A DNA stretch of 64,000 bases from an uncultured bacterium (GCA_964387845.1 CAYLXA010000013.1:25521-89520), one strand, 5' to 3'; positions 5,584-64,000 are shown, counted from the first letter of the stretch. Notes: generated by a model not told the origin, from the sequence alone. Program-made: numbers and translations.

Positions 5584-5589
5584 ATGGCC

Positions 5590-17407: not shown

Positions 17408-17411
17408 CTAA

Positions 17412-17488: not shown

Positions 17489-17490
17489 CC

Positions 17491-20370: not shown

Positions 20371-23300
20371 TTAAACCGAGAGAGAAATTGTGGTTGGTGC
20401 TTTCTCGACTAAAATTTCAAAAAGGATTTCGAAAAATGTTTTCACCGGATTTCCGGAAGGTTTTGGGCCGCCGCGCAAACGGATCATTTCGCCGTTGAAT
20501 TTGTCCAATTGCTGTAATGACGCAACGCCGATTTGCAGAGGGGCGACACGGGTTGAGCTTTGGATTAAAGACTTGGCAGTTGAAATCGGTTCATTCTGAA
20601 CTACCGCAGATTCATCAAGCGTTTCCAAACCTCCGGTTATTGTAGCAATTGCACCGGAAACATTTGCTTTTGTATTGGAGGCAGCCTGTCGCGGAACATT
20701 GCCGCTGCCGGATGCTGCCGCAGGCTGTGTTCCAGGGCTTGGGTTATTATAGGGCACAATCACGCCGACAATTCCCGGCGTATAATATCCGCCTGTGTTT
20801 TGAGGATTTGCCGTCTCTTGCGGTGAACCGTTTTCCGGCCCGCCTTCGTCCGGATTGGAATCCGGAGGATTCTGGGTTTCACCGTTGGTAGCGGGGCTTT
20901 CCGGGATAACTGCAAATGTTGCTTCTATCGTATGATCAGAAGTGACGTTATTAAATGTATAACTCGAAACCGCGCCGACGGAGGTTGAATTCACAAGTAC
21001 ATCTTGGATTTCGTAGCGCGAATCGGGCGTAATTGTAAAAGTCGCATTGTCACCTTCGTTGACCACAACATCTCCAACCGGTGAAATTTGGCCGCCTTCC
21101 GAAGCGCTTGCGGTAATTGTGAAGGCTAGTGGATTACATGGAGCGCCTTCCGGGCAAATACACATATCGTTTGCTTCATCGCATTCTTCACCGGTGTCAC
21201 AGGCAGAAGTTCCGGATTGGCATCCTGCTGTTGCATTACAAGTCTCGCTTCCGTTGCAGAATAATCCATCCGAACAAATCGAATCATCCGGCGTATTGGC
21301 GCAGCCGTTTACGGAATCGCAGGAATCATTTGTGCAGGAGACGCCATCATCACACACAAGCGGTGCGCTCGCCTGACAACCTAAGCCGGGGTCACAGGTC
21401 TCCGTACCGTTACACACATTGGCGTCATCGCACACAAGCGGTGTTCCGGCCTGACAGGTATTATTTACACAAGCTTCAGCGCCGTTACATAAATTTCCGT
21501 CGCCACACTCCGAATCACTGATACAAGCAAAACACTGATCATTCGGTTCATCACAATGGTCCGGATCCGAGCAAGGCTCGGTTCCGTTTTGGCAAATTCC
21601 GGCAATACAAATTTCGGCTCCTGTGCAGAATAACCCGTCAGAACAGCTCATACCATCCACAACCGGGGTTGATTCGCAGCCCGTTGCAGGATCACAAGCT
21701 TCCGCGGTGCATGGATTGCCGTCATCACAGACAAGCGGCGCGCCTGTTTGACAACCCAGCGTTGAGTCGCAACTTTCAGGGCCGTTACAGACATTTCCGT
21801 CATCACATGTTAGCGGTATCCCGGATTGGCAACCCAAGGCAGAATCGCAGGTTTCTGTTCCGTTGCAGATGTTGCCATCATCGCAAACGAGAGAAGTTCC
21901 GGCTGTACAGATGCCTGCCTGGCAAGTTTCCGTTCCATTACAAGCGTTGCTGTCATCACAGTCGGAGTCATTAAGGCATCCTGTGCATTGATCGTTTGTT
22001 TCGTCGCAGATCAGGTTTGGTCCTGAGCAAGGTGCCGGATTTGATTGGCAACCCAGAGCGGCGTTGCAGATTTCAGCTCCCGTGCAAAATAATCCGTCCG
22101 AGCAAACCGAATTGTCTGTTGTATGCACACATCCGCTCAAAGAATCGCAGGAATCATTCGTACAAGCAATTCCATCATCACAATTAAGAGGAACACCCGA
22201 TAAACAACCCAAAGTTGGATCGCAAGATTCAATACCGTTACACGCATCGGCGTCTCCGCAGTTTAATGGCGCACCCAACTGACAGCCAAGGACAGAATCA
22301 CAGGTTTCTGTTCCGTTGCAGAGGTTGCCGTCATCGCAAGCAAGCGGAGTTCCTGGCTGGCATGAACCCGAGACGCAGGTTTCTGTGCCATTACAGGTAT
22401 TGTTGTCTGAGCAATTTGCATCGGTTAAACATGCTTGCACTACGATAGTGATTGCCGGTGAAAATCCGCTGCCGAAACCGCCATCCTGAGGCGGCTGGGA
22501 CCAAGCCTGTACACGGGCGTAGTAAGTTCCGGTTTGTGAAATTACAAACGGTTCAAAAATTCCCGATGGCCAGCGTTCATCGATATTCTGTACAAAATTT
22601 GGATCCGGCGACAATTGTACTTGATAGATCGCAGCGCCCGGAACCGCGTCCCATTCCAAATTGAATGCTCCTAAATTCGGCGAAGGCGGATTTGCGCTCA
22701 CGCCGGGCGGCGCCGAGAAATTCACGGAAATCATAATATCGTCGGAACCTGTGAGCATCGAGTCATCTGCGGTCAACCGTAATTGATAAGAACCCGGATG
22801 CGAAAATGTAACGGACGTGCTGGTATTGTTCGGCGGATTGAATGTGGCGATACCGCCGGAGCTGGTTACTTGCGACCAGCTGACCGTCACCGCACCGGGC
22901 GGATTCGGCAGACCATCATCCGTCACGCCGCCGTTAATGATTGCCGAAGTGCCGAAAGCGACGGTTTGATCATTTCCAAGGTCAACGGTTGGATTTTCAT
23001 TCTGTAAAGTCGATTGGTACTCATACGGACCGATGTCGGTTTGCGCATCGCGCGGGCGGTCTCTGACGTCGGTATGCAAATTCGGCATCGGAAATCCCGC
23101 GTCAATGGCGGCTGATTCGCTGTGCAAATCGTAATCGTTGACCGAAGGAGCTTCTGAAAAATTAACCATCAACACATCCGTTGCGGTTTGCAGGCTCGAA
23201 TATGTGTCGACGCCGTTGAGAAATGACCGCCAGTTGTTGAAATTGGTTATGGGATCTGGTGACGACCACTCGATCCCGCCGGCTGCGAAATACTGACAGT

Positions 23301-26300
23301 CGATATAGATATTGTTGTTGTGCTGAATCGCCGCAAAATCTGTGTAGTTGAAGTAAGCTGCGCAATAAGCCGGCGCCGCTTCTTTTTTGTAAACGATGTT
23401 GTTTAAGAACTGAATGTTGGGGGCGCTTGACGGACTTGCCTCTGCGCCGATGAGGACCACGTAACTATCGTATCCGTTGCCGATCAGTAAATTGTTATAG
23501 AATCGGCCGTTTTCTTGGACGTTGTCCAAAGACAAAGCTTTTCCGATCGATGCGTCTACCACGTTATTAAAGAATTCAATGTTGGAACCTATGCCGCCGA
23601 CCGTGCCGTTGATGTAATTGTTGTAATAGCGGCTGTTACGGTTGAGTTGAAGTGCGCCCGAAAGGCCGGCGTTGATCGTTATGTTGTTCGAAAATAAATT
23701 GCCAGCAGCATGTCCATAAATCACATGGCCGTATCGGTCATAGGTGTATTGCCAAGGATCTGATATTTCTGAAAGGCATATCTCAACAGGATAGCTGGAG
23801 TCGTCGGCAATGACGAGAGGCCCGATATTTTCAAATCGGTTGTTCTGATAAGTAAAATAGTTATCAATTGTCGGGTGGGGCGTTAGATCCGCGATACCCA
23901 TGCTATTAAGGCTTCTGAGAGTACTGTCATAAACTTCGATATATTGACCGGGATTTCCGCCGGGCAGCGGGTTCATTTTAATACCTTCCTCGCCATGCTG
24001 AATGGTTAAGCCGATGAAACGGATGTAGGATGCTGACGTGTAAAACCGGTTTTGTCCGGGAAAGTAAAACGAATGTTCTGACGGGTTGGTCCCGGACGGG
24101 AGGCGAATGTATAAGCGCCCACTTGTGCAATCGATAAAATAAGCGTTGAATGAAGTATTGGAATTCGGGATTGTTAATACATCAAGCATATCTTGATGAC
24201 GGAGCATGCGGCTGAAGGGCCGTTCAAGATCCATGATTATGCCTCTCGGATAATTTCCTTCACCGCCGTTTGCGTTAGGATCGTATGTTCCAAGCGATGT
24301 ATCAGTCCACCAGATTGAATAATTGCCCGCGTTTTCTGAAAATGTCCAGTTTGAAGGAATGCTTGCTCCCGAATCAATGACCGGTGTTTCGCCGGGATAG
24401 TTTCGAATGGTTACCCACTGATTCGGCGCTCCGCCGCGATCCATAAGGTTGTAGGATCCAAACGGCTGTGTTCCACCGCGGATGTAAACCGTATCTCCAG
24501 GATTGAGCTGATCAAACGTTGCGCTTACATTGCAAATCGGCTGGGCAAGAGATCCGGGGCCGCTGTTGCTGCACGCCGGATTATTTGCATCAACTACGTA
24601 GTAATTTCCCGCGCAATCGTTTGAACAATCAAAATGGCTTTCACGCCGGAGATCACAGTAACCGTCACCGCAAGTCCCGGCGCAATCCTGCGAGCAGGTT
24701 TGAACCGTCTCTGGCGCTTCACAAATACCGTCGCCGCAAAGTGCGGTAGTGGTAACCGAAAAAGACGCTTCAATGGTGTGGGTTGTTTGTACGTTGTTAA
24801 ACGTATAACTGGAAATAGCGCCTTGCGAAACGCTGTCGACGAGCACATCCGTAATTTCGTAACCGATATTGGGCGTGATTGTAAATATTTGATCGCTGCC
24901 TTCGGCAACATTGACCGTGCCGTTCGGTACAATGTAGCCGCCGTTATTTGCTGTTGCATTAATTGAATGTGAAGGGCCTTCTACTTGGCAGATTGAGCTG
25001 CAGCCGTCGCCGCTTGCCGTATTGCCGTCGTCGCAAGTTTCATTGCCGACGACTAAACCGTCACCGCAAATTGGATTACATTCTGGGTTGCTGCCGGGAT
25101 TTACAGTGTCAACGGAACAGGTCCAACCGGCCTCGTAATAAATCGTGTCTTGCATAATGGCCGAAATGTTTCCAACACTATCAATCAATCTGGCAAACAC
25201 TGTCCGTTCACCGCTCGGCCCGCTGGCAAGTTTCCAGCGCATGACGTTTTCATACGGAGTCGGGTCACTCCAAATTGTTCCGTTATTAGAAAATATTACG
25301 GATGTGATCGAGGATCCGCCTGAGTCAGAAACCGTTAAGTAGATATGCGAGTCTAACGAATAAGTAACCGCCGCGTCATTCTCAATCAGTATTGTTCCGC
25401 TCGGCGGTTCAAGATCAACGACAAACTGAACCACATTGGAATATTCGGTTGGGTTCCGCCCAAGTTGAAACGGCGGCACGGGCGGTGATTCCCATCCGCG
25501 CACGCGGGCGTGATAAGTATTTGAGGTGCTCAACGAAACAGGAACAAACGTATCGTTTGACCAAAGAGTCGTAACATTGGAAGCAAAATTAGGGTCGGTT
25601 GAAATTTTGATTTCGTAAGCATTTGAGCCCAGCGACGGAGTCCAAGCGAGATTAAAATCGCCGTCATTGGGCGTTGCGGGTTGCGCCAGAACAGGCTGGA
25701 CGGCGGCTTGTGACGCAAAAGCCCCAATGTGGCAGCCTGTGCTTCCGGTTGGCGTGACGGAAACATTAAAACCGTTTTCGATGACATTAAGGCACATGCC
25801 CGAGTGGCTTGCAGGACTGCCCGGTTGAAGATTGAAATCAGCGTTTGCGAGATCCACAAATTGCGGATCTGCTTGAATATTTGAATCTGCCAGATTGAAG
25901 TTATTAAAATCAGCTACTGAGTAAAGCCCGCTCACCACGATTTGCCCGTTTCCGCCGCCATCTTTTAAAGCTCTAATAACCGAAGTTTCGTGGGCCGGAT
26001 TAGACGAGTAAATCAAATTATTTCGAATGTCATCGCCGTATCCGCCAAAATTCGTATCAACATATTCCAGCGGATCGTAATGAAGCATTAGTAGCTCAGC
26101 ATTGAAAGTATTGCCGAAAGAGACTGGTGAAACATAATCATGGTTGGCATCCATCAAAATATTGTTCCAGATGCGGACATTATATATAGCATTCAGGGCG
26201 TCCGGAGGATTCCAGTTGAAATTGGCAGTATAAATTCCACGCGGCCCCGGACTGTGAATGGTATTGTTAAAGATGTATACGTCCTGAATTAAATTTTGGT

Positions 26301-29300
26301 CAGCAACATTTGCAACGAGCGTGATTCCGGTAGAATCGTTAAATCCGTCATAAATAACGTTATTGTAAATGTAAAGTCGTTCTGTTTTTCCGGGCCCGAT
26401 TTGAATTGCGCCGCCGCGGTGATTTGATTCTGAAGGGAATTGGTTGGTTCCAAAAAACGTGTTATTTCGAATAATCGTATTTTGTGAAATGCCGGGATTT
26501 CCGTCAATTGAACCGATGCCGAATGAAGTGTGAAACCGATTTCGGAATGTATTATTCTCTATTAAAACATTTTCAGAATTCCGGAAACCGACAGTTCCAT
26601 GTCCGCAATCACCGAACCAGCTGTTTTTAATAGTCGTATTTCTTGCATCATCGCCAACAATTCCGTCAACGCCGCCGCCGTTCATCAGAAGCAAGCTCGG
26701 GCTTGCCGTGCAATTTAAATTTAAATTGTCAATCTCTACTCCATCGGTATCGAGAACTTTAATTCCGTTTGCCCAAGGTTCCGCGTAACTTTGCTCCGGC
26801 GGCCAGCGGTGGCCAATGCCGATATCATCATTTCCGGTGAATGAAGTGACTGATATATTTTTGAGCTTGACGCCATTTGACCGTTGAATGCCAAGCACGT
26901 AGGGTGCATACAATCTTCCGCCTGCGGTATCGATATGCCCAATGAAATTTAATGAATCAAAAGTAATGTCGTTTGCCAAATAAGTTGTCAGCATATATAT
27001 GCCGATATTGCTGCCTTGAGCCGTCATACTGCTGCCGTGTAAATTCACGGTTTCATTCGGATAGCCGCGAATCGTAATCGGGTTTGCCTCAGTTCCCGAA
27101 CTTCGGATGACAATAAAATTGTTTGCATCAATGTAGGGGAGGAAGTAATCGCCGCCCCGAATGTAAACCGTATCGCCGATATTTAATTTTTCATAAGGAG
27201 ACGTTTCACGAAGCGCTCTCGGCGTGCACCACGGCGTATTGGGATCGAGTGCTTGAGTTCTTGAGTAACTGTCCGAACAGTCACAATTATTTTGATCAAT
27301 GAAAAGCATATTAGTTCCGTTCGCAAGCTCTTGCGGGTCGGAACTGCCGACCGTGCATCCGCCTTCGGATTGGCTTGTATATTCAAATGCGCCGGGCGCG
27401 CAACTTCCGCTTTCAGGACGCGGATTTCCGTCAAAATCCACCGCAACTTCCGGAAGACAAGGGACCGAGCCGATCGCAGGGCTGTCCTGCTGTAAATGAA
27501 AATCGCCGATACCAGCGTTTACGAAAAGCGGGTTGCCGTCTACGTTGTCTTCGGCGAATGACAGTGCATTAAATTCGTCGATGGTGTAGTGATAACGCTG
27601 CGTGTTCCGATTGTTGGTGCTTTGGACCGGGTCTTCGGCAGGATTGAGTTCTTTGACCCAGTTATTTTCAAACACATTTCCATAGCCATTTTGGCCTTCA
27701 AAATCCCAGCCGCCCAGCCGGATTTCGCCGTGAATTTGTTCTCCTTCGCCCGTATAAGTTTGAATTCCGTAGAAAATATTATTTTTGATTTGATTATTAT
27801 TGGCCCAATTATTTTGGCCGAAAACGCCGTTATTGCCGACGCTCATGTTGGCGTAGCCTGTGTTGTAAACCGTGTTGTGAAAGATTTTATTGTTGTTGGC
27901 TTCAAAGAATCCGGTGCCGGGCCCGTTTTGATCCTGAGAATTGGCAATCGAAATTCCGTTTCCATTTAATGCGCCGTTGTAAATCACATTGTTATAAATC
28001 AGGTTGTCACTGGCCCCCAAAATCTGAATGCTGTTTGCGCGAAGCGTGGTCTCCGAAGGAATTGAATTGTAAGTATGAAACGTGTTATTCCGGATGATGT
28101 TATCGTGAGAACCGACACCAACGGCGATATTGGTATGGAGCGTATTTGAAAAATCATTATTTTGCACCAAAACGTCATGCGTATTAAAACGAAGCACAAG
28201 TAGAATGTGGCCGCAGTCACGGAATGTATTGTTTTCGATTAAGCCGCCCGAGACATAATCCATCATGATGCCATCGCCGGAATAGCGGTTGTCCGGGTTA
28301 ATTTGATCGTTAACTTGCATGCATCGGAAAAAACTATTCTTCACTGTGATGTTGCTTGCATTATCAAATTCGATGCCGTTGCCATAAGGTGCATTAGGAG
28401 CGCGATCGTCGTAGCCGATGTCATCGGTGCCTTTGAAGTCAACAACCGAAATGCTGTCAAATACAATATCGCTGCTTCCGCTGACAACCTCAATGACTCG
28501 CGGGCCATACAATTTTCCGTTTGGGTTACCAACATCCACGTTGCCGACAAAATGAAGATTTTCAAATGTGATGAAATGAACGTCATTCAGAACAAATGTG
28601 CGTTCGAACGCTGTGTGCGCACCGCGGATGACTGCCGTTTCGCCGGGATATGAAGTGAATGTAATTCGGTTGCTATCGCTTGTGCCCGATGAATTGATTC
28701 TGACTGTGGTATCGACGATCGGATATTCACCGCCGCGAATATAAACGGTGTCGCCTGCGTTTAATTTGTGATTGGGCCGGTTTTCATGAAAGCCAAGAGG
28801 CGAACACCAGGGTGTATAAGGATCGCGTGCCGCATACCGGTCTCCAGCGTCGCTGCAGTTGCAATTATTTTTATCCACAAAGAGAACATTGGCGCCGTTG
28901 GCAAGCCCTTGCGGGTCAGAGCTTCCGGCTATGCAGCCTCCGAGCTCTGATGGGTGATTGTTGGGATCGTTGGGATTAAATCCGCCTGCAAATTCTTCAC
29001 CGTCTGAGTAGCCGTCACCGTCTGTGTCCGGATTATTAGGATCCGTGCCGTTTTGAAATTCCTGCAGATTGATAAATTGATCATTGTCCGGGTCATCCGT
29101 GCCGTTTTGATTGAGATTGCCGAAGTGCAGCATTTCCCAAACGTCCGGCAAACCGTCTTGATCTGTATCTGAAGTGTCGTTGTAAACATACTCGAATGGA
29201 CCGATGTCGCAGGCAGCGCCTTGCGGCCGGATATGGTTGTCAAAATCAAAATCTACTTCAGGAACACAGATTCCGGCATCCACTGCCGAGCTTTGCTCGG

Positions 29301-31257
29301 TTGGGTGAAAATCGTGATTCTGCGGATCGACAAATAAAGGCACGGTTCCGAGATTATCTACGATTGTTCCAGTCCCAAAAAGGTTATCCAGATTTTGAAG
29401 TGTGTAATCAAAGTGTATATACGGAGGATTGGAAGTTCCAAAATTTCGCGTAGACATCACAAATCCGCCCGGGTTGTCAGTCACCAGCAAATTATTTTTG
29501 ATTTCATTTCCGTAACCCTGATTGGGTTCGAAGCCATAAATATCAAAGAAAATAGGACGGTTGAGATAATACGCATATGTCTGAGAGTAAGGTCCGTCGG
29601 CAGCTCCGCCGGTTTTAAGCTGGATGATATTGTTTTGCACTTTGTTGTCATGCACATAATTGGTATTTGGCAACAGGACGTCATTTATATCCGGACGATT
29701 ATTAAACTCAATCGCTTTTACCATAGAGTTGTGCGTGGTTGCTGTCGGGTCGTCCATATAAATTAAATTATGATAAACCTGGTTCCGGTCGGAATTCGAA
29801 TCGCCGTTTCCGATAAAAGTAATGCCGTGCAAGGAACGCCGCCTCGGCTCGTCAGCGTCGTAGTAAATGATGTTGTTGTGGATTTGGCTGTCGGAAGCCG
29901 AGAGCATTTCAATGGCATGGCCGCCTTGGTTTCCCGTGGTCGGGTACACATTCCAGTTGTAAATCAAATTATTTTTAATAGTCATTTGACTGCCGCCGAA
30001 TGCAAAGCAGGTATGAAGTTCGTTATTACAGGAATTATTTTCAACCGTTATGTTGTCAGACCATCTAACCGTTAAGCTGATATGTCCGCAATTTCCAAAA
30101 GTACTATTTTTTACGCTGCCACCGGATACGCGATTAAATTGAATCCCGTCGCCCGAGAAGCGAAAATCTTCGGTCGGGCGCTCAGAGTATTCAGAGCAGC
30201 TGACAGATGCATTCTCGATTTTAATATTAGAAACGTCATCAAATTGTATTGCACTCCCCCAAGTTTCATAGTCTTCCCCGGTTTTCCGCCACCTAAAGCC
30301 GTAACCGATGTCATTGAGGCTTTGAAAATTAAGAACGCTTGTATCTAAAATTTGAATATCTTGGGCTGGATTTCCAACAGTCCCGCTAATTCTCAACGGA
30401 TTCGGCATGTAAAGTCTGCCTTCCGGCGTATCTTCATAGGCAATAAAATTAAGCCCCTTTAACGTAATGTAGCTGGCGTTATTCAAGATCAGAATCCACG
30501 AATAATTATAAGAGCCGCCGCGTATGGTAACCGGCTCATAACCACTCGGTTCAGTTTGAGAGGGATATGCTTGGATCGTGATCCGCTGCGCAGGCCCGGC
30601 GCCGGACGTATTAACGCTCGCATTATGTTCCGTATAGTCGCCGCGGCGAATGAAGACTGTATCGCCCGGATTCAATTTATGGTTTGGCCTGTATTCGGTT
30701 AACCCGCGCAAACTACACCACGGTGTTGCGGGATTTAAGGCTTCCGGGCGTTCACGGTTATCGCGGCAATTACAATTGCTCTGATCGACAAACAGAACAT
30801 TCAGCCCATTTGCCAAATTCAAAGGATCTGTATTGTTGTCACACTGACGAAGTGGAATACTGCTTGCGTTGGTCGGGCTACTGCCTAATCTGATCTCGTC
30901 GTCATCATTGACGCCATCTCCGTCTGTGTCATATCCGATGTTTCCGTTGCCCACAGTTGGATTGGTATTAAAAGCAACTTCCCGAAAGTTGGGCACTCCG
31001 TCTCTATCCGGATCGTCGTATTGATCATAACTTGTGATATCGCCAAAGTATTGAATTTCCCAATCATCTGAAAGGCCATCAAAATCAGTGTCAATTTCAC
31101 CGGCGGCAATTTGGGGAAGGGGAATGCCCATGAAGACGAGCGTGAAAATAATGATCAAAGAAACAAAATCAGAAAGAAATTTGGAAACAACTTTCTTGAA
31201 CTGCCGGGATTTTATTTTTTTTTTGTGTGATTTATCTGATTCGGAGCTTCGTCCCAT
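20371..31257 (-). CDS. Giant secreted multidomain surface protein (3628 aa). It has TSP3-like Ca-binding repeats, four pectate-lyase-type beta-helix modules, FN3/PKD-like domains, InlB-B-type repeats, a Myxococcus-type Cys-rich repeat and a Dictyostelium/EGF-like Cys-repeat region.
   Basis: A single uninterrupted ORF with an N-terminal signal/anchor ([18 protein letters not shown]). It has DxDxDGxxDxxE motifs and repeated NxxxN/right-handed beta-helix signatures. The module-start motif LANGxNVLF(V/I)DxxNC(N/D)C...TPWC...GDTVYIRGG occurs three times. A CGDGxxxxxExCDDGNxxSGDGCSxxC unit is present. About 20 CxxGxxxxxCDDGNxCTxDxC-like units lie between ~22435 and ~21130. Confidence 0.85.
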   Translation of the reverse strand: [3628 protein letters not shown]

Positions 31258-32737: not shown

Positions 32738-32830
32738 TGTCATTGCGAGATACGTTATTTGGTATCGAAGCAATCTCGGTACTTAGATTGCTTCGGCACT
32801 GCACAACGCGCCTCGCAATGACGACTTGAC
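32738..32830. repeat. ~90-bp palindromic intergenic repeat (family G), copy 1
   Basis: gtcattgcgag ... agattgcttcggc ... aacgcgcctcgcaatgac. The outer arms are inverted repeats of each other. About 40 nt are near-identical to the copy at 33586..33625. Confidence 0.7.
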
Positions 32831-32892: not shown

Positions 32893-33522
32893 ATGGCGTT
32901 GTCCGATCTTTATAGCAATTTTCATTTGTTTTTCAGATGGCTTCACGTATTTGTCGGTATTATTTGGATCGGCCATCTGTATTTTTTCAATTTTGTGAAC
33001 GTCCCGCTTCAAGCCTCACTAGATGATGCCGGCAAGAAAGTCGTCAACCCAAAACTGATGCCGCGCGCACTTTGGTGGTTCCGCTGGGGCGCCATGCTCA
33101 CGTTTATTTCCGGGTTGATTCTTTATACGATGATTTACATGTATACGCCGGGAGCCGGATTTGGCCCTTCATCCGCGTTTCGTGATCTTTTCGGTAATAT
33201 TACGGGTAGATCAATTTGGATTTTAATCGGAATGTTATTTGGCACGATTATGTGGTTCAACGTGTGGTTTATTATTTGGCCTGCTCAGAAAGCTCTTTTA
33301 TCCGGAAAAGTTCCGGCCGATCAAGCCGCCGGCGTTCGCCGCAGAGCCTATTTGGCGTCACGTACAAATACCTATCTGTCGGGCCCCATGCTTTATGGTA
33401 TGTTGGCTCCGGGGCATTACGGCGCGTTTAGCTGGGTGACGTTTTTGGTGTTTGGTTTGGTGGCGGTGGCCTTGATTTTCCACGCCATTCAGAAATCCCC
33501 CAAAGTCGGTACGTCAGTTTGA
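32893..33522 (+). CDS. Polytopic membrane protein, possibly of the HemJ/UPF0093-like family
   Basis: The 209-aa protein has 4-5 TM helices. Its first helix has the F-W-L-H-x-F-V-G-I-I-W-I-G-H-L-Y-F pattern, reminiscent of HemJ-type proteins. An RBS GGAGGAGG sits 6 nt upstream. Family G repeats flank the gene on both sides. Confidence 0.55.
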   Translation: MALSDLYSNFHLFFRWLHVFVGIIWIGHLYFFNFVNVPLQASLDDAGKKVVNPKLMPRALWWFRWGAMLTFISGLILYTMIYMYTPGAGFGPSSAFRDLFGNITGRSIWILIGMLFGTIMWFNVWFIIWPAQKALLSGKVPADQAAGVRRRAYLASRTNTYLSGPMLYGMLAPGHYGAFSWVTFLVFGLVAVALIFHAIQKSPKVGTSV

Positions 33523-33527
33523 TCTAA

Positions 33528-33625
33528 TCGTTATTGCGAGGCGCCTTAATCAGCGTCGCGGCAATCCCTGTTCTGAGATTGCTTCGGCGTTAATCAACGC
33601 GCCTCGCAATGACAGTTCAATTTAT
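33528..33625. repeat. ~95-bp palindromic intergenic repeat (family G), copy 2
   Basis: ttattgcgaggcgcc ... agattgcttcggcgttaatcaacgcgcctcgcaatgac. It has the same architecture as copy 1 and sits between convergent genes. Confidence 0.7.
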
Positions 33626-33634
33626 ACTTTAAAA

Positions 33635-33892
33635 TTATTCTAATTCCTGCAAAAACGAATTCCGGCTTTTCAAATCGACAAACACAACCTGGTCTGGATA
33701 ATTTAACCCCGCTTCACTGACAAATACTGTGGTGCCGTTGATCTGAAACGCCATTACCTCGCAACCCTCGATGGGAAGTTTGTTCCCGCCCCCTATGATT
33801 TTATCGACAATTTCCTGGCTTACGGCTTTGGCTTTTTGGCCGCGCGCGTCGAGGTAATTCACCAGGATTGTCTTTAGGTCTTGGATTGTCAT
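33635..33892 (-). CDS. Small hypothetical protein (85 aa)
   Basis: An ORF with a LacI-type palindromic operator 29 nt upstream. I recognise no family. It does not end in GG, so it is not a ThiS/CysO-type carrier. Confidence 0.45.
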   Translation of the reverse strand: MTIQDLKTILVNYLDARGQKAKAVSQEIVDKIIGGGNKLPIEGCEVMAFQINGTTVFVSEAGLNYPDQVVFVDLKSRNSFLQELE

Positions 33893-34996: not shown

Positions 34997-35255
34997 TTGG
35001 AAAGGTAGCACAGCTTTGCCCTTTGTCAAGGTGCCGATTTATGAGTGCGCCGCGTTTTTGAAAAACAGGTTGGCCGGTCGATATATTCGGCCGGATTGTC
35101 GGATATGCGGGAGATGTATTTTTTAAGTTTATCGAGATAAGCCTATAACTGACTATATTAGTCGGAATTTGGTTTGACAGTTCCGCCGAAGTGGACTATG
35201 ATAGGCGTCACTTTCAGCAAGATTCCAAGCCGAGAGTCCCCAAATAAGGTGAAAA

Positions 35256-36983
35256 ATGCTCGATAAATTGGTATTGCCTTCAGAAATTAAGAAGTTTGAG
35301 GAGATGGTGATTAAGCTCGAAAAGGGCGAAATCTCATCCGATGAATTCAAAAAATTCCGCCTCAATAATGGTGTCTACGGAATCCGCAATTCTGACGACA
35401 CCCACATGATCCGCATTAAAATCCCGTTCGGCGCTTTGAGTTCCGAACAGCTGGAAGCCATTGCAGATGCGACCGAGAAATACGCGCCGCTGAAGATGGG
35501 GCACGTCACGACCCGTCAATGTATTCAGGTTCACAAGATCAAGCGCGAAGATGTTGCTAAATATTTGGATATCATCGGAAAAGCCGGTGTCACGAGCCGT
35601 GAAGCGTGCGGCAACACAGTTCGAAATGTGACCGCATGTCCCTACGCAGGTGTTTCAAAATCCGAAGCTTTTGACGTGAGGCCCTACGCTGAAGTCATAG
35701 TCGAATATTTTCTGCGCAATCCGCTCAATCAAAATTTACCGCGGAAATTCAAAATCGCACTCGAAGGATGCCCGGAAGATCACGCACGCACGCCGATTCA
35801 TGATTTGGGGCTTGTGGCTGCGATTCGCAAGGTGAACGGAAAAGAAGAGCGCGGCTTTAAAATTTATGCGGGCGGCGGCTTGGGAAGCCACCCGGTCAGC
35901 GCCGTGCTGCTCGAACCTTTCACGCCGATGGAACTCGTTTTGCCGACGTGCGATGCGACGGTCCGCATTTTTGAGCGCCACGGAGACCGCAAGAACCGTT
36001 CACGTGCTCGGATTAAGTTTTTGCTTGAAGATTGGGGCGAAGAAAAATTCCGCAAAGCGATTTTAGATGAGCGGGCTGCTGTTCTTTTCACACGATCGGG
36101 CCTAGCGTATCCTAAATTTGATATTCAGGACGAAAAACCGCCGGTTGTAAAAGAAAAGGCTGAAAAAGTGACATCGCCTGCGTTCGAAAAGTGGCGAAAG
36201 ACCAACGCGGTTGAACAAAAACAAAAAGGTTTTTACTCGGTCGCAATCCGCTGCCCGCTGGGTGATGTGACGGTTTCCCAGATGCGCGATATCGCAAAAA
36301 TCGCGCGCAAATTCTGCGGAGGCAGAATTGTAACTACTATCACACAAAATTTCATATTCGCGTGGGTGCACGAAAATTATCTGGGGTCTGTTTATAAAGA
36401 GCTCGAAAAAATTAATCTCGCATTTGATGGCGCCGAGCGCTTCATTGATGTGACGCGCTGCCCGGGAGCTGACACTTGTAATCTCGCGATTACAAAATCG
36501 CGCGGGCTTGCGCAGGCAGTCGATCAGCTTTTCAATAACGGATTGAGCCCGCTTTCAGATCTCGAGGGAATCGACATTAAAATTTCAGGCTGCCCGAATT
36601 CTTGCGGCCAGCACCATATTGCTTCGATGGGTTTTTACGGAACTGCCCGGAATGTAAACGGAAAACTCGTGCCGCACTATGAATTAATGATCGGCGGCGG
36701 AACGGTAGAGGGAAAAGCCACGTTTGGCGTTGCCACGATCCGGATCCCTGCGCGCAAGACGCCGGATGCCGTCAAACACTTGGCCGGCATTTATCAAAAG
36801 GAAAAAAAGTCGGACGAGACATTTAATCAATTCGCTGCCCGCATCGGAAACGAGCGGATCAAGAAAGAGCTCGAACCGTTTACGCATTTGGAAGCGTATG
36901 ATACCGATCCCGAAAACTATCAGGATTGGACCGACGAAGCACCGTTTAAACTTCAGGTCGGCAAGGGCGAATGTGCAGCTTAA
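35256..36983 (+). CDS. sir: Ferredoxin-dependent sulfite (or nitrite) reductase hemoprotein (siroheme-[4Fe-4S])
   Basis: The 575-aa protein has two NiR/SiR repeats. Cluster-ligand motifs are CPGADTCNLAITKSRG and GCPNSCGQHH. Confidence 0.8.
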   Translation: MLDKLVLPSEIKKFEEMVIKLEKGEISSDEFKKFRLNNGVYGIRNSDDTHMIRIKIPFGALSSEQLEAIADATEKYAPLKMGHVTTRQCIQVHKIKREDVAKYLDIIGKAGVTSREACGNTVRNVTACPYAGVSKSEAFDVRPYAEVIVEYFLRNPLNQNLPRKFKIALEGCPEDHARTPIHDLGLVAAIRKVNGKEERGFKIYAGGGLGSHPVSAVLLEPFTPMELVLPTCDATVRIFERHGDRKNRSRARIKFLLEDWGEEKFRKAILDERAAVLFTRSGLAYPKFDIQDEKPPVVKEKAEKVTSPAFEKWRKTNAVEQKQKGFYSVAIRCPLGDVTVSQMRDIAKIARKFCGGRIVTTITQNFIFAWVHENYLGSVYKELEKINLAFDGAERFIDVTRCPGADTCNLAITKSRGLAQAVDQLFNNGLSPLSDLEGIDIKISGCPNSCGQHHIASMGFYGTARNVNGKLVPHYELMIGGGTVEGKATFGVATIRIPARKTPDAVKHLAGIYQKEKKSDETFNQFAARIGNERIKKELEPFTHLEAYDTDPENYQDWTDEAPFKLQVGKGECAA

Positions 36984-36989
36984 TTTAGT

Positions 36990-37028
36990 GATAAGTTGTA
37001 AGTGGTAAGTGCTAAGTTAACTGCCAAG
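36990..37028. repeat. Family T (TAAGT-heptad) repeat between sir and mec
   Basis: tagtgataagttgtaagtggtaagtgctaagttaa. Confidence 0.6.
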
Positions 37029-37548
37029 CAAGTTCCAAAAAATCTTTCTTCGTAGAATCCCAGCCGAATAATTTCGCACCGCGGGCTTTACCCCTGACTC
37101 GAACGGAGTCAGGGACTGCGTCGGCCGCGAAGCGATCGGCTTCGCTGTCCGCGCTGTCTTTTGTAACGTCGACTACTAAATAATTCACATCAGGCATCAG
37201 AGGGCTGCCATCAAACGTCGCTTGTTTTTTATCTTCGTCCGAAAAATAAGAACCGACATCAACGTGAGAATGATAAATAATCCGGATGACCTCGTCTTTT
37301 GTACGGGCGACTTTTTCGATATTCAAAAGGTCTTTGGGATCTAAAAAGTAGGCAGTTTTGCTTGTTCGCGGAAACTTTTGAGGGTCGCTTGCGTGCATTT
37401 CATCCTGCAAATTCCGGCAGGGAAACGAGTTTTCAAGACTTGCGGGAATCCCTTTTTTGCCGGTAATGATACCGCAACATTCGGAAGGATAGGCTGAAAT
37501 AGCATGGCGATAAACCGCGTCTATGATTCGTTTTTTGATTGTAACCAT
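37012..37548 (-). CDS. mec: JAMM/MPN+ metalloprotease (Mec-like CysO-cysteine peptidase)
   Basis: The JAMM motif IIYHSHVDVGSYFSDED (HxHx7Sx2D) is present, along with a conserved Glu and a Cys-Cys near the N-terminus. Genomic context is next to moeZ and cysM. Confidence 0.75.
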   Translation of the reverse strand: MVTIKKRIIDAVYRHAISAYPSECCGIITGKKGIPASLENSFPCRNLQDEMHASDPQKFPRTSKTAYFLDPKDLLNIEKVARTKDEVIRIIYHSHVDVGSYFSDEDKKQATFDGSPLMPDVNYLVVDVTKDSADSEADRFAADAVPDSVRVRGKARGAKLFGWDSTKKDFLELAWQLT

Positions 37549-37585
37549 AGTTGTAAGTGGTAAGCGCTAAGTGTTAAGTAAAAGG
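37549..37585. repeat. Family T repeat upstream-flanking the four-helix-bundle gene
   Basis: accatagttgtaagtggtaagcgctaagtgttaagt. It is in inverted orientation relative to the copy at 37975..38012. Confidence 0.6.
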
Positions 37586-37935
37586 GATTTTTGAAAACCG
37601 CAAAGCATTCTTCCGACCTCATCACAATTTTCTGAAATTAGTTCAAACTTTTCATGACTAATATAAGCCAAATCAAAGCCTAATAACAGATGATATTTAG
37701 TTTCTTCTAGAGAGCTATCAGCTAAGTTTAGAAAATGCAGAAATTCTTTCCTGCTTTTTCTCTTTTGTCCTTCTACGATGTTTGTAGAAATGGAAGCGGC
37801 AGCTCTGCGTAATTGACTAGATAATCCGAATTTTTCGTCTGACGGGAAGCTTTTAGTAATTTTATAAACTTCCAAAACCAATCGATGAGCTTTTTGCCAG
37901 ACTTTTAAATCACGAAATGTACTAATTTTATTCAT
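37567..37935 (-). CDS. Four-helix-bundle protein (the family often found in 23S rRNA intervening sequences)
   Basis: The 122-aa protein reads MNKISTFRDLKVWQKAHRLVLEVYKITKSFPSDEKFGLSSQLRRAAASISTNIVEG, the characteristic signature of that family. A strong RBS AGGAGGG is present. Inverted family T repeats flank the gene. Confidence 0.8.
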   Translation of the reverse strand: MNKISTFRDLKVWQKAHRLVLEVYKITKSFPSDEKFGLSSQLRRAAASISTNIVEGQKRKSRKEFLHFLNLADSSLEETKYHLLLGFDLAYISHEKFELISENCDEVGRMLCGFQKSLLLNT

Positions 37936-37974
37936 AAACCCTCCTTGAATTAATATGATTATTTAATTCGTGGA

Positions 37975-38012
37975 GGGAAAAACTTATCACTTACAACTTA
38001 CCACTTAAAACT
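37975..38012. repeat. Family T repeat in inverted orientation, downstream flank of the four-helix-bundle gene
   Basis: acttatcacttacaacttaccacttaaaacttag, which is the reverse complement of the TAAGT-heptad unit. Confidence 0.6.
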
Positions 38013-39184
38013 TAGTACCTTGCCATGCTCGGATCAACGCGCTCAGCCCACACATCGATTCCGCCGGTCAGGTTTTTCAACTTCTTAAACCCGCGCGATT
38101 GAAGGATTTGCAGCGCTTTCATGCTGCGCCCTCCGTGATGGCATTGCAGCACAATCTCTTTTGAGGGATCAAGCTCTCCGGTTCGATTTTGAATTTCACC
38201 CAGCGGAATGAGTTTTGAACCTTCAATGTGGCAAATGTCGTATTCAAACGGCTCGCGAACATCAATCAAAACCACTTCTTTCCTGTCGAGTCTCTTTTTG
38301 AGTTCTTCAACCGTGATTTCAATCGAATCGCCTTTTCCTTTTGCTGCATCTTCACCGACAGATTCCTGGCCGATCCGCAGGCCGCAAAATTGTTCGTAAT
38401 CGATTAATTTTTTAATCGTCGGATTTTTTCCGCAGATGGGGCACTCCGGATCTTTTCTTAGTTTCAATTCGTGAAAGCGCATCTTGAGCGCGTTAAATGT
38501 GAGAAGCCTTCCGATGAGCGGAGTGCCTTGGCCCGTGATGAGTTTTACGGTTTCGGTGGCTTGAATCACACCGACAACGCCGGGAAGAATTCCCAAAACT
38601 CCGCCTTCTGCGCAGCTCGGGACCATTCCGGGCGGCGGCGGTTCGGGATAAAGGCAGCGATAACAGGGCCCGCGTGTTGAATCAAAAACGGAAGCCTGGC
38701 CTTCAAATCGGAAAATACTGCCGTAAGCGTTTGGTTTGCCGAGCAAAACGCAGGCATCGTTTACGAGATAACGCGTCGGAAAATTATCGGTTCCGTCTGC
38801 GACGATGTCGTATTGTTTGATGATTTCCATCGCGTTCGAGGAATCCAGTTTGGTTTCGTGCTCGATCACATTGACGTTCGGATTAATCTCGCGAAGCCGA
38901 GCTGCAGCCGTACCGACTTTGGATTTTCCGATATCTTTGGTGCCGAACAAAACCTGGCGCTGCAAATTGGTGTGATCGACGACGTCAAAATCAATCAGCC
39001 CGAGCGTTCCGATGCCGGCGGCTGCGAGATATAAGGAAAGCGGGGAGCCAAGGCCGCCCGTGCCGACACACAGGACTTTTGCGGCTTTTAGCTTTTTTTG
39101 CCCTTCGACGCCGATTTCAGGCAATATCAGATGGCGTGAGTAGCGCTTCAGCTCTTCAGTTGATAGATTTACTTCTTTTCCCAT
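38012..39184 (-). CDS. moeZ: Sulfur-carrier-protein adenylyltransferase/sulfurtransferase (MoeZ/MoeB-type E1 with a C-terminal rhodanese domain)
   Basis: It has a ThiF/MoeB Rossmann fold (VLCVGTGGLGSP), a CxxC pair and a rhodanese domain with the active-site motif CHHGGRS. Confidence 0.85.
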   Translation of the reverse strand: MGKEVNLSTEELKRYSRHLILPEIGVEGQKKLKAAKVLCVGTGGLGSPLSLYLAAAGIGTLGLIDFDVVDHTNLQRQVLFGTKDIGKSKVGTAAARLREINPNVNVIEHETKLDSSNAMEIIKQYDIVADGTDNFPTRYLVNDACVLLGKPNAYGSIFRFEGQASVFDSTRGPCYRCLYPEPPPPGMVPSCAEGGVLGILPGVVGVIQATETVKLITGQGTPLIGRLLTFNALKMRFHELKLRKDPECPICGKNPTIKKLIDYEQFCGLRIGQESVGEDAAKGKGDSIEITVEELKKRLDRKEVVLIDVREPFEYDICHIEGSKLIPLGEIQNRTGELDPSKEIVLQCHHGGRSMKALQILQSRGFKKLKNLTGGIDVWAERVDPSMARY

Positions 39185-40094
39185 TGTTTTTGTCCTTTAA
39201 TTCCCAGAAGGAGTCGTTCATATAGCGATCGCCGCCGTCAGGGAAAACAGTCACGATTTTACCAGATTTAATTTTTTGAGCAAGTTTGAGCGCAGCGCAC
39301 ATGGCCGCACCGGCTGAAACACCTGCAAAAAGCCCTTCTTCACTAGCCAGCCGAATTGTCATTTCGTATGCGTCTTCGGTTGCGACATCAATGATTTCAT
39401 CAGGCTGTTTCGGGTCATAAATCCCGGGATTTAAGTTGGTCTGCATGTGTTTCCAGCCCTCAAGGCCGTGGAAAGTCGAGTCCGGCTGAGCGGCGATCGC
39501 TCGAATCTTGGAATTTATTTTCTTTAAGTACCGGCTCGTTCCCATAAAAGTTCCGCTGGTGCCCATGCCGGCCACAAAATGCGTCACTTCGCCGTTCGTT
39601 TGTTTCCAAATTTCAGGCCCCGTCGTTTCGAAATGTGCCTTCCAATTTTCATCATTATTGTATTGATCCGGAAAGAAGTATTTATCCGGATTGGATCTAT
39701 AAGTCTCCTGGCATTTTTCAATTGCACCATCAGAACCTTTCAAAGGGTCGCTGAAGATCAACTCAGCGCCGTAGGCCGTGATCATTACTTTTCGCTCATG
39801 GCAGATATTTTTCGGTACGACGAGATTGACTTTGTAACCTTTACGCGCACCGATCATTGCGTAGGCGATTCCGGTATTTCCGGAGGTTGCGTCGAGAATT
39901 ACTTTGCCTGGTTTTAATTTTCCGGATTTTTCACCCATCGCAATCATGCGTGACGCAGCGCGGTCTTTCACGGATCCGCCGGGATTAAACCACTCAAGCT
40001 TCGCAAAAATCCGGGCCGGAGAGACGGATTTTGTGATTTTTTTGATTTCTACGAGCGGCGTATTGCCTATTTTTGATAAAAGATCATCCAACAT
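39156..40094 (-). CDS. cysM: Cysteine synthase (PLP-dependent; CysM/CysK family)
   Basis: It has the PLP-lysine region NPGGSVKDRAA, a GTSGTF glycine loop and the motif SAGAA. Confidence 0.85.
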   Translation of the reverse strand: MLDDLLSKIGNTPLVEIKKITKSVSPARIFAKLEWFNPGGSVKDRAASRMIAMGEKSGKLKPGKVILDATSGNTGIAYAMIGARKGYKVNLVVPKNICHERKVMITAYGAELIFSDPLKGSDGAIEKCQETYRSNPDKYFFPDQYNNDENWKAHFETTGPEIWKQTNGEVTHFVAGMGTSGTFMGTSRYLKKINSKIRAIAAQPDSTFHGLEGWKHMQTNLNPGIYDPKQPDEIIDVATEDAYEMTIRLASEEGLFAGVSAGAAMCAALKLAQKIKSGKIVTVFPDGGDRYMNDSFWELKDKNNGKRSKSIN

Positions 40095-40153
40095 AGCTCG
40101 CCATTGTATAAAACCAAACGCGGAAAGTAAAGGAATGCGCCAAATCGAGATGG

Positions 40154-41758: not shown

Positions 41759-42024
41759 CCCCTAAAAAGCCTCGTAGACAAAACCGCGAAGTTTTAGTAC
41801 ACTCACTCAGAGTAACCATGACTTTCATTTAAGCAGTAAAGGCGTTTATCTATGGAAAGTCATGATAATCCCAACGCTTTTTGTTAATGGAATATTTATA
41901 ATTCTAATGATGCGTTGGGACAACCCAAATTCCTGCCAAACCGGTATAAATCCCTCAAAATTGGCTAGGGAGGGTGTTTAGCATTCATATATGATAAAAG
42001 CAGTCAGAATTTTTCAAGCTATAA

Positions 42025-43428
<1,404 letters not shown>

Positions 43429-44361: not shown

Positions 44362-44468
44362 ACTTAAATTCAAATATCAAATTTCAAATATCAAAATTTC
44401 GCTTGTTTCGAATTTTAAATTTTTGTGATTTGAATTTGTTTTTAATTTTGAAATTTGGATTTTGATAT
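44362..44468. repeat. AT-rich ~100-bp imperfect-palindrome repeat (family F), copy 1, upstream of ispG
   Basis: caaatatcaaatttcaaatatcaaaatttcgcttgtttcgaattttaaatttttgtgatttgaatttgtttttaattttgaaatttggattttgatatt. It is ~90% identical to the copy at 45535..45640. Confidence 0.7.
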
Positions 44469-45534: not shown

Positions 45535-45640
45535 TATCAAAATTCAAATTTCAAATATCAAAATTTCGTTCGTTTCGAATTTTAAATTTTATAATTTGAA
45601 TTTGTTTTGAATTTTGATACTTGAGTTTTGAATTTATAAA
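45535..45640. repeat. AT-rich ~100-bp imperfect-palindrome repeat (family F), copy 2, downstream of ispG
   Basis: tatcaaaattcaaatttcaaatatcaaaatttcgttcgtttcgaattttaaattttataatttgaatttgttttgaattttgatacttgagttttgaattt. Confidence 0.7.
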
Positions 45641-46728: not shown

Positions 46729-46800
46729 GGCAAGTTGTAAGTGGTAAGTGATAAGTGTTAAGTTAATCAAATTACTTAGCACTTACAACTTAGCACTTAG
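46729..46800. repeat. Family T (TAAGT-heptad) palindromic element between the two radical SAM genes
   Basis: gttgtaagtggtaagtgataagtgttaagttaatcaaattacttagcacttacaacttagcacttagcac. Confidence 0.65.
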
Positions 46801-46812
46801 CACTGGAAAAAA

Positions 46813-48435: not shown

Positions 48436-48476
48436 GTAGAGGCGGATCAGCGTATAGCGTATAGCGTATAGAAAGC
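48436..48476. repeat. GCGTATAG-type repeat (family R), a tandem 7-mer array
   Basis: gcggatcagcgtatagcgtatagcgtatagaaagcg. It is related to the elements at 52704 and 54094. Confidence 0.55.
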
Positions 48477-52706: not shown

Positions 52707-52786
52707 CGTTTAGGGGATAGAGCCGAATAACGTTTTGGGATTTCTATACGCTACCCGCTCTACGCTAAACGCTATTTTTTATGTTC
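52704..52786. repeat. Family R palindromic element between convergent ABC-F and queF. Possible terminator for ABC-F.
   Basis: tagcggatagcgtttagggg...ctatacgctacccgctctacgctaaacgctatttttt. The inverted arms atagcgtttag / ctaaacgctat are followed by a T6 run. The element overlaps the last codons of queF. Confidence 0.45.
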
Positions 52787-54091: not shown

Positions 54092-54093
54092 CA

Positions 54094-54172
54094 GCGTATA
54101 GTGTTTAGCGGATAGCATATAGGAATGATCAGAAAAATGGTTTTTTCTATCCACTCTACGCTATCCGCTAGC
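54094..54172. repeat. Family R palindromic element upstream of the pilin operon
   Basis: agcgtatagtgtttagcggatagcatatagg...ctatccactctacgctatccgcta has 11-bp perfect outer arms, tagcggatagc / gctatccgcta. Confidence 0.55.
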
Positions 54173-54240
54173 CAAAATTTGAACATTTCTCCCGCCCATG
54201 TTAACTTTTGATTAATAGAAGTCGTACTTAATGAATGATT

Positions 54241-63437: not shown

Positions 63438-64000
<563 letters not shown>

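Follow-up and report, generated by a model that had tools for sequence, protein, structure and literature searches.

The 64,000-nucleotide stretch of DNA analysed here (GCA_964387845.1, CAYLXA010000013.1:25521-89520; referred to at its full length as the window, with a G+C content of 46%) comes from an uncultured bacterium of the Omnitrophota, and between positions 35256 and 40094 it carries a compact set of genes for cysteine biosynthesis. Genes were called by listing open reading frames (ORFs) and by scanning their products against Pfam and NCBIfam. The gene sir (35256-36983, plus strand) encodes a ferredoxin-type sulfite/nitrite reductase and converges with four genes on the minus strand: cysM (39156-40094), moeZ (38012-39184), a gene for a 122-amino-acid four-helix-bundle protein of family PF05635 that we call IVP (37567-37935), and mec (37012-37548). 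The PF05635 family also occurs in the intervening sequences (IVSs) of 23S rRNA, and as in those elements the IVP gene of the window lies between the arms of a long inverted repeat, here composed of tandem heptamers. We describe the locus, its relatives and the flanks of IVP genes in general, and we argue that the IVP gene and its flanks are probably an IVS-type cassette residing in the mRNA of a CysO-type (protein-thiocarboxylate) cysteine operon without the gene of its sulfur carrier.

Domain scans identify each of the cysteine genes. Sir matches NIR_SIR (E 1.4e-56) as well as NIR_SIR_ferr. CysM, encoded by the first gene of the minus-strand group, is a pyridoxal phosphate (PLP)-dependent cysteine synthase (PALP, E 2.3e-70) that passes the cysKM model TIGR01136 (354 bits, cutoff 344) and falls below the cutoff of the cysM equivalog TIGR01138 (366 bits, cutoff 394); from its sequence it is a CysM-type PLP O-phosphoserine/O-acetylserine sulfhydrylase at family level. 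MoeZ combines an E1-like adenylyltransferase domain (ThiF, E 1.5e-83) with a C-terminal rhodanese domain (E 1e-20), scoring 469.6 bits on PRK08762 (cutoff 449) and 505 bits on the MoeZ equivalog NF005902, whose cutoff is 647. The last gene of the group, mec, encodes a JAMM/MPN+ peptidase (Prok-JAB, E 8e-15) with an intact E...HxH...S..D hydrolase signature, and its residues E23, H93, H95, S103 and D106 are invariant in an alignment of seven homologues (alignment A2). Mec also contains a 22-amino-acid in-frame insertion (SADSEADRFAADAVPDSVRVRG; DNA positions ~37084-37157) that is unique to the window and absent from six relatives. The underlying DNA consists of two GC-rich palindromes, CCCTGACTC-GAAC-GGAGTCAGGG and GCGAAGC-GATCG-GCTTCGC, and the insertion looks like a small palindromic element placed into the coding sequence.

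An earlier reading of the DNA that was made from the sequence alone had recognised a sir, mec, moeZ-rhodanese and cysM cluster split between mec and moeZ by the 122-residue gene, and had taken it for the signature of the CysO route; gene calls and domains bear this out. Its inclusion of sir holds as far as adjacency goes, which is kept in four related loci (L004, L164, L176 and L177, introduced below), but sir faces the other four genes from the opposite strand and so lies outside their message. It has a strong promoter-like site of its own at 35174-35202 on the plus strand (11 of 12 positions of a sigma-70-like consensus). On the minus strand the order cysM, moeZ, IVP, mec suggests a single transcription unit, in which the 3' end of cysM, with its stop codon, overlaps the start of moeZ by 29 nt. 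The sole promoter match placed to drive all four genes is a sigma-70-like site 5' of cysM (40103-40131, minus strand; TTTACT-17-TACAAT), a consensus match at 9 of 12 positions, and the consensus scan detected no promoter-like minus-strand site in the spacers around the IVP gene or mec.

The locus is recognisable as a genuine CysO-type gene set, albeit a lineage variant of the known system, from comparison with its relatives. The best genome match of the window's MoeZ (77% identity) is L004, a Candidatus Omnitrophica metagenome-assembled genome (MAG; CG11) and the closest named genome. L004 and 79 further MoeZ loci at 61-68% identity, from Acidobacteriota, Gemmatimonadales, Planctomycetia and others, were compared, and in ~70 of these 80 loci a CysO homologue is encoded directly upstream of moeZ. 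In L004 the two are fused: the moeZ ORF (7719-9152) specifies 477 amino acids, of which the first 91 adopt a MoaD/ThiS-type fold, end in ...TIVPSIAGG and continue in frame into MoeZ, the CysO part scoring 49.4 bits on TIGR01687 (cutoff 49.5) and 58.8 bits on SAMP1 (cutoff 60). A similar fusion ending in ...SIAGG is found in L167 (2544-3983), where Pfam places ThiS, ThiF and Rhodanese on one 479-residue product. L176 has a separate CysO gene of 125 codons whose product bears a 34-residue tail after the GG. The adjacent JAMM peptidase Mec is the obvious candidate to release fused CysO after its GG.

The window itself encodes no GG-ending ThiS/MoaD-fold carrier alongside these enzymes. The sequence-only reading had already noted that no cysO or thiS ORF was visible, and the observation extends to ORFs below 60 codons: the only GG-ending ORF of at least 40 codons in the window is an antisense ORF and not a carrier, tblastn of the L004 CysO domain against the window returned a best E value of 0.58, and a hidden Markov model (HMM) built from 71 CysO sequences and run with --max over all stop-to-stop segments of at least 30 amino acids gave a best E value of 1.3. 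An 85-codon ORF at 33635-33892 was considered as a carrier and rejected, having no Pfam match and a C-terminus other than GG. In the protein database no top match to stand-alone CysO fell on the source contig or on the 525-kb contig of the sister locus L164. The 29-nt overlap of cysM and moeZ precludes a carrier gene in between, and the window's MoeZ begins where the linker of a CysO-MoeZ fusion would end. MoeZ proteins of the sister loci L164, L166 and L177 begin likewise, and these loci also lack CysO between cysM and moeZ. On these sequence comparisons the carrier appears to be truly missing from the cluster in the subclade of the window, and a CysO route that is still active would require a carrier gene at some other place in the genome.

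The mec-cysO-cysM genes of Mycobacterium tuberculosis (Rv1334-1336), together with moeZ, provide the reference for this pathway. The window shares with them CysM, MoeZ with its rhodanese domain, Mec and a neighbouring ferredoxin-type sulfite reductase, and its relatives carry the GG-ending ThiS/MoaD-fold carrier in the cluster. Unlike M. tuberculosis, the window has no carrier in the cluster or anywhere in its 64 kb, its gene order is cysM-moeZ-(insert)-mec, and its relatives L004 and L167 fuse the carrier to MoeZ, an arrangement that would need proteolytic release after the GG. The M. tuberculosis moeZ gene is itself unlinked from mec-cysO-cysM.

The missing carrier invites another explanation, namely that the CysO route has been lost, that CysM uses free sulfide delivered by Sir, and that MoeZ and Mec are either kept for thiamin, molybdopterin or tRNA thiolation or are decaying. 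This is the most serious of the alternatives, although we consider it unlikely. The absence of cysO is common to at least three related loci as well as the window, thiC lies only 2 kb away, the operon is interrupted by the cassette, and Mec bears the palindrome-encoded insertion. Yet all four genes are intact and of full length, with their JAMM, ThiF and rhodanese features conserved, and mec is still linked to moeZ in all relatives without a local cysO, which is most easily explained by a persisting GG-carrier substrate. The dispersal of moeZ in M. tuberculosis moreover makes a scattered gene set compatible with function.

The repeats around the IVP gene, originally described as a 'family T', are tandem heptamers of the form (AGTNNTA)n. 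On the mRNA strand the 5' arm, R3 (37981-38016, minus strand), reads AGTTTTA AGTGGTA AGTTGTA AGTGATA AGT and runs over the stop codon of moeZ. The 3' arm, R2 (37549-37579, minus strand), consists of CT-type heptamers and ends directly before the ATG of mec at 37548; it also encodes the last codons of the IVP gene (LLNT and the stop). R2 (37549-37579) and R3 (37982-38012) are inverted with respect to each other over 31 nt at 84% complementarity, with 402 nt between the arms. The bracketing of the IVP gene by inverted repeats in the sequence-only reading is therefore real, but it is not unique to that gene: a third array, R1 (36984-37018, plus strand), fills the 28-nt spacer between sir and mec and covers the mec stop codon, so that mec is bracketed too. 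R1 is inverted relative to R3 (27-32 nt, 84-89% complementary) and forms a direct repeat with R2 (24 nt, 96% identical); L164, the sister locus, has no R1. In the whole window the motif TAAGTNNTAAGTNNTAAGT occurs 22 times with up to two mismatches, compared to 0.03 occurrences expected from shuffled sequence, and all 22 matches fall within seven arrays at four intergenic places. Two of these places are hairpins of the same family with no ORF in the loop, one between two NADH-dehydrogenase genes (17408-17490) and one between two radical-SAM genes of the MqnC/CofH-like type (46729-46812).

Other heptamer families are scattered through the window at 44362-44454, 45535-45639, 54092-54190, 52744-52775 and 48449-48471, none of them with an IVP gene. 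Among them are AAATATC/AAATTTC hairpins between nadA, ispG and a radical-SAM gene and AGCGTAT/AGCGGAT hairpins near queF, greA and a gene for a pilin-like protein; the AGCGTAT unit also makes up the arms of L169, an IVP homologue with 72% identity. Small ORFs beside these arrays were examined as further IVP genes and rejected, being queF, greA and others. The 7405-nt contig from Logan assembly SRR15237813 that contains the locus (L001/L002) stops 23 nt past the end of mec (7382), where R1 lies. Heptamer arrays may thus break assemblies and may be under-represented in MAGs, and the authors of the paper on the repeats of Beggiatoaceae remarked likewise on assembly breakage.

The product of the IVP gene is a clear member of its family (PF05635, E 1.7e-41; TIGR02436, 130 bits against a cutoff of 24), and its sequence matches the structures 2gsc (E 5e-16) and 2rld in the Protein Data Bank, each entry containing five chains. 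The identical protein is recorded only in two Logan metagenome assemblies and one NCBI contig, while as a query it retrieves 1465 homologues at E <= 1e-10. The Pfam and NCBIfam scans found no transposase or nuclease domain in its 122 residues. RNA folding of 37540-38025 (minus strand) yields -134.5 kcal/mol with a z score of -6.5, and the closing stem between R3 and R2 is present in both the minimum free energy and the centroid structures; the corresponding cassette of L004 folds with a z score of -4.5. Just inside the R3:R2 stem of the predicted fold lies a small hairpin 5' of the IVP start codon (37939-37977, minus strand; I12, 15 nt, 87% complementary) in which CCCUCC pairs with the Shine-Dalgarno sequence GGAGGG. 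L004 has an analogous CCCCC/GGGGG hairpin, and none is evident in four other close IVP homologues, so that we do not treat it as general. Rfam produced no match in 36900-38100, and there is no Rfam family for the cassette.

The junction between moeZ and mec is variable among the relatives of the window. Mec homologues closer than that of L004 were found and their contigs read (L164, L166, L167, L176 and L177). Between thiC and ahpC the window and L164, which lies on the 525-kb JGI contig Ga0268299_1000036, are collinear, with 72-84% of their nucleotides identical. They differ on a large scale only between moeZ and mec: the window has 491 nt of cassette there and L164 has 803 nt, its slot holding a methyltransferase gene (5186-5974), and no heptamer arrays occur in the 12.5 kb of the L164 locus. 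In L177 the slot is occupied by an ORF for a 177-residue membrane protein (5466-5999). In L167 it is a 32-nt spacer (3984-4014) consisting of a solo heptamer array, TAGTGGT TAGTGAC CAGTGCC TAGTGAC, and lacks an IVP gene. No spacer separates moeZ from mec in L176, and in L166 mec is convergent with moeZ. L004 does have an IVP gene in the slot, but its product is only 41% identical to that of the window and it is flanked by inverted arrays of different units, CGTACAT and GAGGTAC. Much closer IVPs exist elsewhere: over 100 in the protein database share 62-73% identity with that of the window, in contexts that include leuB/asd, a helicase gene and yjbQ, the neighbourhood of an MCP gene, and others; one of them, at 63% identity, is encoded between unrelated genes elsewhere in the sister genome. 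No IVP gene occurs in the cluster in any of ~75 non-Omnitrophota cysM/moeZ loci. The variable contents of the slot, taken together with the closer IVPs elsewhere, imply that the IVP gene of the window was recently acquired or replaced rather than inherited with the operon, and by these comparisons the junction is a hot spot in the lineage that accepts unrelated genes too. The suggestion in the sequence-only reading that a small mobile cassette was inserted into the operon gains support from this polymorphism.

The arrangement of the window recurs around IVP genes at large. We fetched 80 metagenomic loci encoding IVP relatives at 41-57% identity and compared the 120 nt on either side of the ORF, scoring the best inverted repeat that the two flanks form. 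Seventy IVP genes could be scored in this way, and 201 other ORFs of the same loci served as controls. The score reached at least 30 in 74% of the 70 IVP genes and in 0% of the 201 controls (Mann-Whitney p 3e-27), with medians of 34.5 and 15, respectively. Self-similarity of the flanks was enriched at period 7 (50% vs 9%) and period 8 (19% vs 0.5%), with none of the remaining periods between 4 and 11 enriched. The arms are typically ~32-34 nt long and comprise about five units, which vary from locus to locus (AGGAGTC, AGGGACT, AGTACCC, AGTGATT, AGCGGTC and others) around a fixed dinucleotide: of the 49 5' arms, 39 have an AG and five a CT that is invariant in phase, whilst among 62 3' arms CT is phase-invariant in 52 and AG in eight. 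Such a hairpin reads alike on both strands, and its polarity, with AG on the strand running toward the loop, consequently belongs to the hairpin and is independent of gene orientation. IVP genes are embedded tightly, with gaps to their neighbours of ~55-60 nt and a co-oriented neighbour upstream in 55 of 65 cases and downstream in 36 of 53. The signature motifs of 23S and 16S rRNA that were looked for are absent from the ~90 IVP loci examined. Cultured, named organisms share the pattern: IVP genes are flanked by CAGGAGT on plasmid pNPUN02 of Nostoc punctiforme PCC 73102 (NPUN_RS35280), by CAGAATT/CAGAAGT on plasmid C of Trichormus variabilis ATCC 29413 (AVA_RS28115) and by CAGAGGA/CGGATGA on AZO_p2 of Azospirillum lipoferum, the plasmid matches being mostly from Nostocales.

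The sequence of the unit is associated with that of the protein. Pairs of loci have 2.9 of the five variable heptamer positions in common when their IVPs are at least 65% identical and 1.4 of five when identity is below 45% (Mantel p <= 0.0005). In all of the four closest homologues of the window's IVP for which DNA was read, one of them in the sister genome, the units share the TAAG core of the window, and two IVP cassettes on a single contig, L125, carry different units. The comparison of the window with L004, where one site in one lineage harbours a different protein and a different unit, points to a unit that goes with the gene.

The closest known counterparts are the IVSs of rRNA. In Coxiella burnetii the 23S IVS has a terminal stem of 28 bp and tandem GACAGAT heptamers, in a copy number that varies between strains, just upstream of the start of the S23p gene; RNase III cuts have been mapped within the stem, at the first repeat, and a Xanthomonas homologue of S23p/PF05635 is a homopentamer (PMC4990558). 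The window cassette resembles the IVSs of Coxiella and Leptospira in its PF05635/S23p protein and in the position of the ORF in the loop of a long stem (28 bp in Coxiella compared to ~31-35 bp here), with terminal inverted repeats that enclose the ORF. As in Coxiella, its heptamers lie just 5' of the start codon, and GACAGAT becomes AGATGAC when read in the AG phase. Neither element has a promoter of its own, and both show a sporadic distribution suggestive of horizontal spread (PMC4990558). Unlike the rRNA elements, the cassette occupies the spacer of a protein operon, between moeZ and mec, and not helix 9, 25 or 45 of 23S rRNA; the only rRNA that Rfam recognises in the window is 16S at 63438-64000. 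Its ORF is also intact, with a strong Shine-Dalgarno sequence, in contrast to the ORF of Coxiella, which is in decay and probably not translated. RNase III excision has been demonstrated for rRNA IVSs, whereas for the window it is suggested by the stem.

A second body of literature concerns intergenic heptamer repeats, which are abundant and often form inverted pairs in Xanthomonas, Nostoc, Beggiatoaceae and Bacteroidetes and have been described with no mention of a four-helix-bundle gene (PMC4692102, PMC4679880). These genome-wide repeats (the STRR type of cyanobacteria, GGGAATC of Xanthomonas and TAACTGA of Beggiatoaceae, cyanobacteria and Bacteroidetes) resemble the arrays described here in being intergenic runs of 2-14 heptamers that form convergent inverted pairs able to fold into stem-loops, and they are found in taxa rich in PF05635 genes. 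They differ in that the arrays here are tied statistically to the IVP gene, and the Xanthomonas GGGAATC unit has no AG/CT phase mark. One paper records IVP genes within cas operons, such as one lying between cmr3 and cmr2, and interprets them as functionally associated (PMC3936711), and the PF05635 family is still called functionally uncharacterised apart from its kinship to the Avd proteins of diversity-generating retroelements (DGRs) (PMC10053308, PMC11270868). In the full-text literature accessible to us, most subscription journals lying outside it, we found no general account of heptamer hairpins around PF05635 genes, only the observation on the Coxiella IVS.

Taken together, we favour the interpretation that the locus is an IVS-type cassette in an mRNA, within a CysO-type cysteine operon that lacks a linked carrier, and put its probability at roughly 0.65. 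Two lineage-specific changes would have shaped the locus: CysO has gone from its position upstream of moeZ, and the moeZ-mec slot has taken up a cassette composed of a PF05635 pentamer-family ORF within inverted arrays of about five heptamers, 5'-(AGNNNNN)n ... (NNNNNCT)n-3'. The promoterless cassette would be read through from the cysM promoter as part of a cysM-moeZ-IVP-mec message, in which the arms would pair into a stem of ~31-35 bp that ends at the mec start codon. RNase III would, on the model of the Coxiella and Leptospira IVSs, cut the R3:R2 stem, thereby uncoupling moeZ from mec on the transcript and freeing the IVP RNA. The position of the stem end at the mec AUG could also gate the translation of mec. 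The arrays would travel or co-evolve with the IVP gene, and ORF-less copies would be scattered in the spacers of other operons. The anatomy of the cassette, the wide occurrence of its flanks, the presence/absence polymorphism and the lack of cysO in the window are direct observations, whereas movement of the cassette as one unit and a function for the protein are, like co-transcription and cleavage by RNase III, inferences.

Several observations weigh against this interpretation. Co-transcription and RNase III cleavage are proposed by analogy. Mobility comes without a mechanism: we found no recombinase, nuclease or target-site duplication, and no direct duplication flanks the cassette besides the arrays themselves, although inverted arms and a presence/absence polymorphism are there. 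R1 beyond mec and the ORF-less hairpins demonstrate that the arrays are not exclusively cassette termini, and the AAATATC family of the window (44362-44454, 45535-45639) has no AG phase mark. L004 is among the few loci with the opposite arm polarity, its AG-type arm lying downstream of the gene. The correlation between protein and heptamer is confounded by host relatedness. Mismatches between arms show no excess of G.U-compatible over A.C combinations on the sense strand (72 vs 68); most are of the transversion type and fall at the variable heptamer positions, and the arms may be alike as arrays of one heptamer family and not through selection for pairing at the RNA level. Lastly, the absence of cysO covers 64 kb, the rest of the genome being outside the comparison.

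Some of these points are equally expected if the heptamer hairpins are ordinary intergenic repeats of the host, akin to REP, STRR or terminator-like sequences, in whose loops IVP genes happen to land or survive, the arrays belonging to no mobile unit. In favour of that explanation stand the ORF-less hairpins of the T family and those of other families (44362-44454, 45535-45639 and 54092-54190), the solo array that fills the moeZ-mec spacer of L167 without an IVP gene, the R1 array, the period-7 arrays at 9% of control ORF flanks, the lack of strand asymmetry among wobble-compatible mismatches, and the gene-unlinked heptamer repeats of Xanthomonas, Nostoc and Beggiatoaceae (PMC4692102, PMC4679880). 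It sits poorly, however, with a unit that tracks the IVP protein and not the site, as in the window and L004, with the TAAG core around close IVP homologues in unrelated contexts and the significant Mantel test, with the two differing cassettes of L125, and with inverted arms around three quarters of IVP genes and no control ORF. We regard host repeats as a doubtful explanation of the whole pattern.

It is far less probable that the operon has long contained the IVP gene by vertical descent and has integrated it functionally, for instance as an accessory of MoeZ or Mec, with the gene diverging fast. The L004 gene does lie at exactly the same junction, the 41% identity of its product is only somewhat lower than the values for Mec (49%) and for a neighbouring lipoprotein (44%), and the IVP gene shares the orientation of its operon neighbours and lies close against them. 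Against this, the gene is missing from the slot in the nearer relatives L164 and L166 and in L167, L176 and L177, more than 100 closer proteins and their genes beside leuB/asd, helicase/yjbQ and MCP genes belong to other contexts, and 0 of ~75 loci outside the Omnitrophota have an IVP gene in the cluster. Ancient vertical presence, the outcome that the sequence-only reading had named as contradicting an insertion, is largely refuted by relatives that show the opposite.

Identity of IVP as the Avd of a DGR or its remnant is effectively refuted at this locus, and we rejected it: secondary matches to bAvd (Pfam, E 3.7e-13) and to the DGR Avd model NF033474 (60.6 bits) speak for it, but the latter lies below the cutoff of 80 while the TIGR02436 score exceeds its own cutoff several-fold, no reverse transcriptase is among the identified neighbours (LacI, sir, mec, moeZ, cysM, lipoprotein, thiC, nadA), and the only repeats found are heptamer arrays, with no pair of template and variable repeats. 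What the two proteins do have in common is a homologous four-helix-bundle fold, and the structures of bAvd and PF05635 proteins are both pentamers. Avd is basic and binds nucleic acid.

A few further features of the window deserve mention. A palindromic repeat family of ~80 nt (cattgcgag ... gattgcttcgg ... ctcgcaatg) occurs at 32741-32820 and ~33530-33620, on either side of a gene for a 209-residue membrane protein (32893-33522), and recurs beside mec in L166 (640-725). An nhaA-I riboswitch is predicted at full length on the minus strand at 9860-9913 (Rfam, 44.1 bits against a gathering score of 37), and the 278-nt leader of thiC (41759-42036) gave no match to the thiamin pyrophosphate (TPP) riboswitch at the Rfam gathering threshold. 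The 16S rRNA gene is on the plus strand and present as its 5' 541 nt, running off the end of the window, and the 23S gene, a possible site for a classical IVS, lies beyond. A single ORF of 3628 codons (20371-31257, minus strand), whose L164 counterpart has beta-helix and Flg_new-type domains, probably encodes a giant surface or adhesin-like protein.

Of the two halves of the locus, the cassette is the more interesting. Stand-alone PF05635 genes in ordinary operons keep the full anatomy of an IVS, with a long heptamer stem, a fixed AG phase and a unit that co-varies with the protein, and this links three things that have been treated separately: the IVSs of rRNA, the four-helix-bundle genes scattered in operons, and the unexplained heptamer repeats of intergenic regions. 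For annotation it is a warning that IVP genes within operons are probably passengers that take no part in the pathway, and the same applies to the IVP gene between cmr3 and cmr2 (PMC3936711). For the Omnitrophota it documents CysO-MoeZ fusions, a subclade without a linked carrier gene and a hot-spot junction that takes up foreign genes. The AG-phased arrays furthermore offer a testable nucleic-acid partner for a large family of unknown function. More speculatively, and with considerable doubt on our part, PF05635 proteins and AG-phased heptamer hairpins might constitute one widespread and so far unrecognised class of element, in which the pentamer binds its own array of about five heptamers, as RNA or DNA, with one subunit per AGNNNNN, the five variable bases provide lineage specificity, and ORF-less hairpins are non-autonomous copies serviced in trans. 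If this were true, the IVSs of 23S rRNA would be only the most visible members of the class, the intergenic heptamers of cyanobacteria and others would find an explanation, and the cassettes would be portable switches, operated by RNase III or by protein binding, that re-wire the operons into which they settle, which in this organism would concern the ratio of moeZ to mec.

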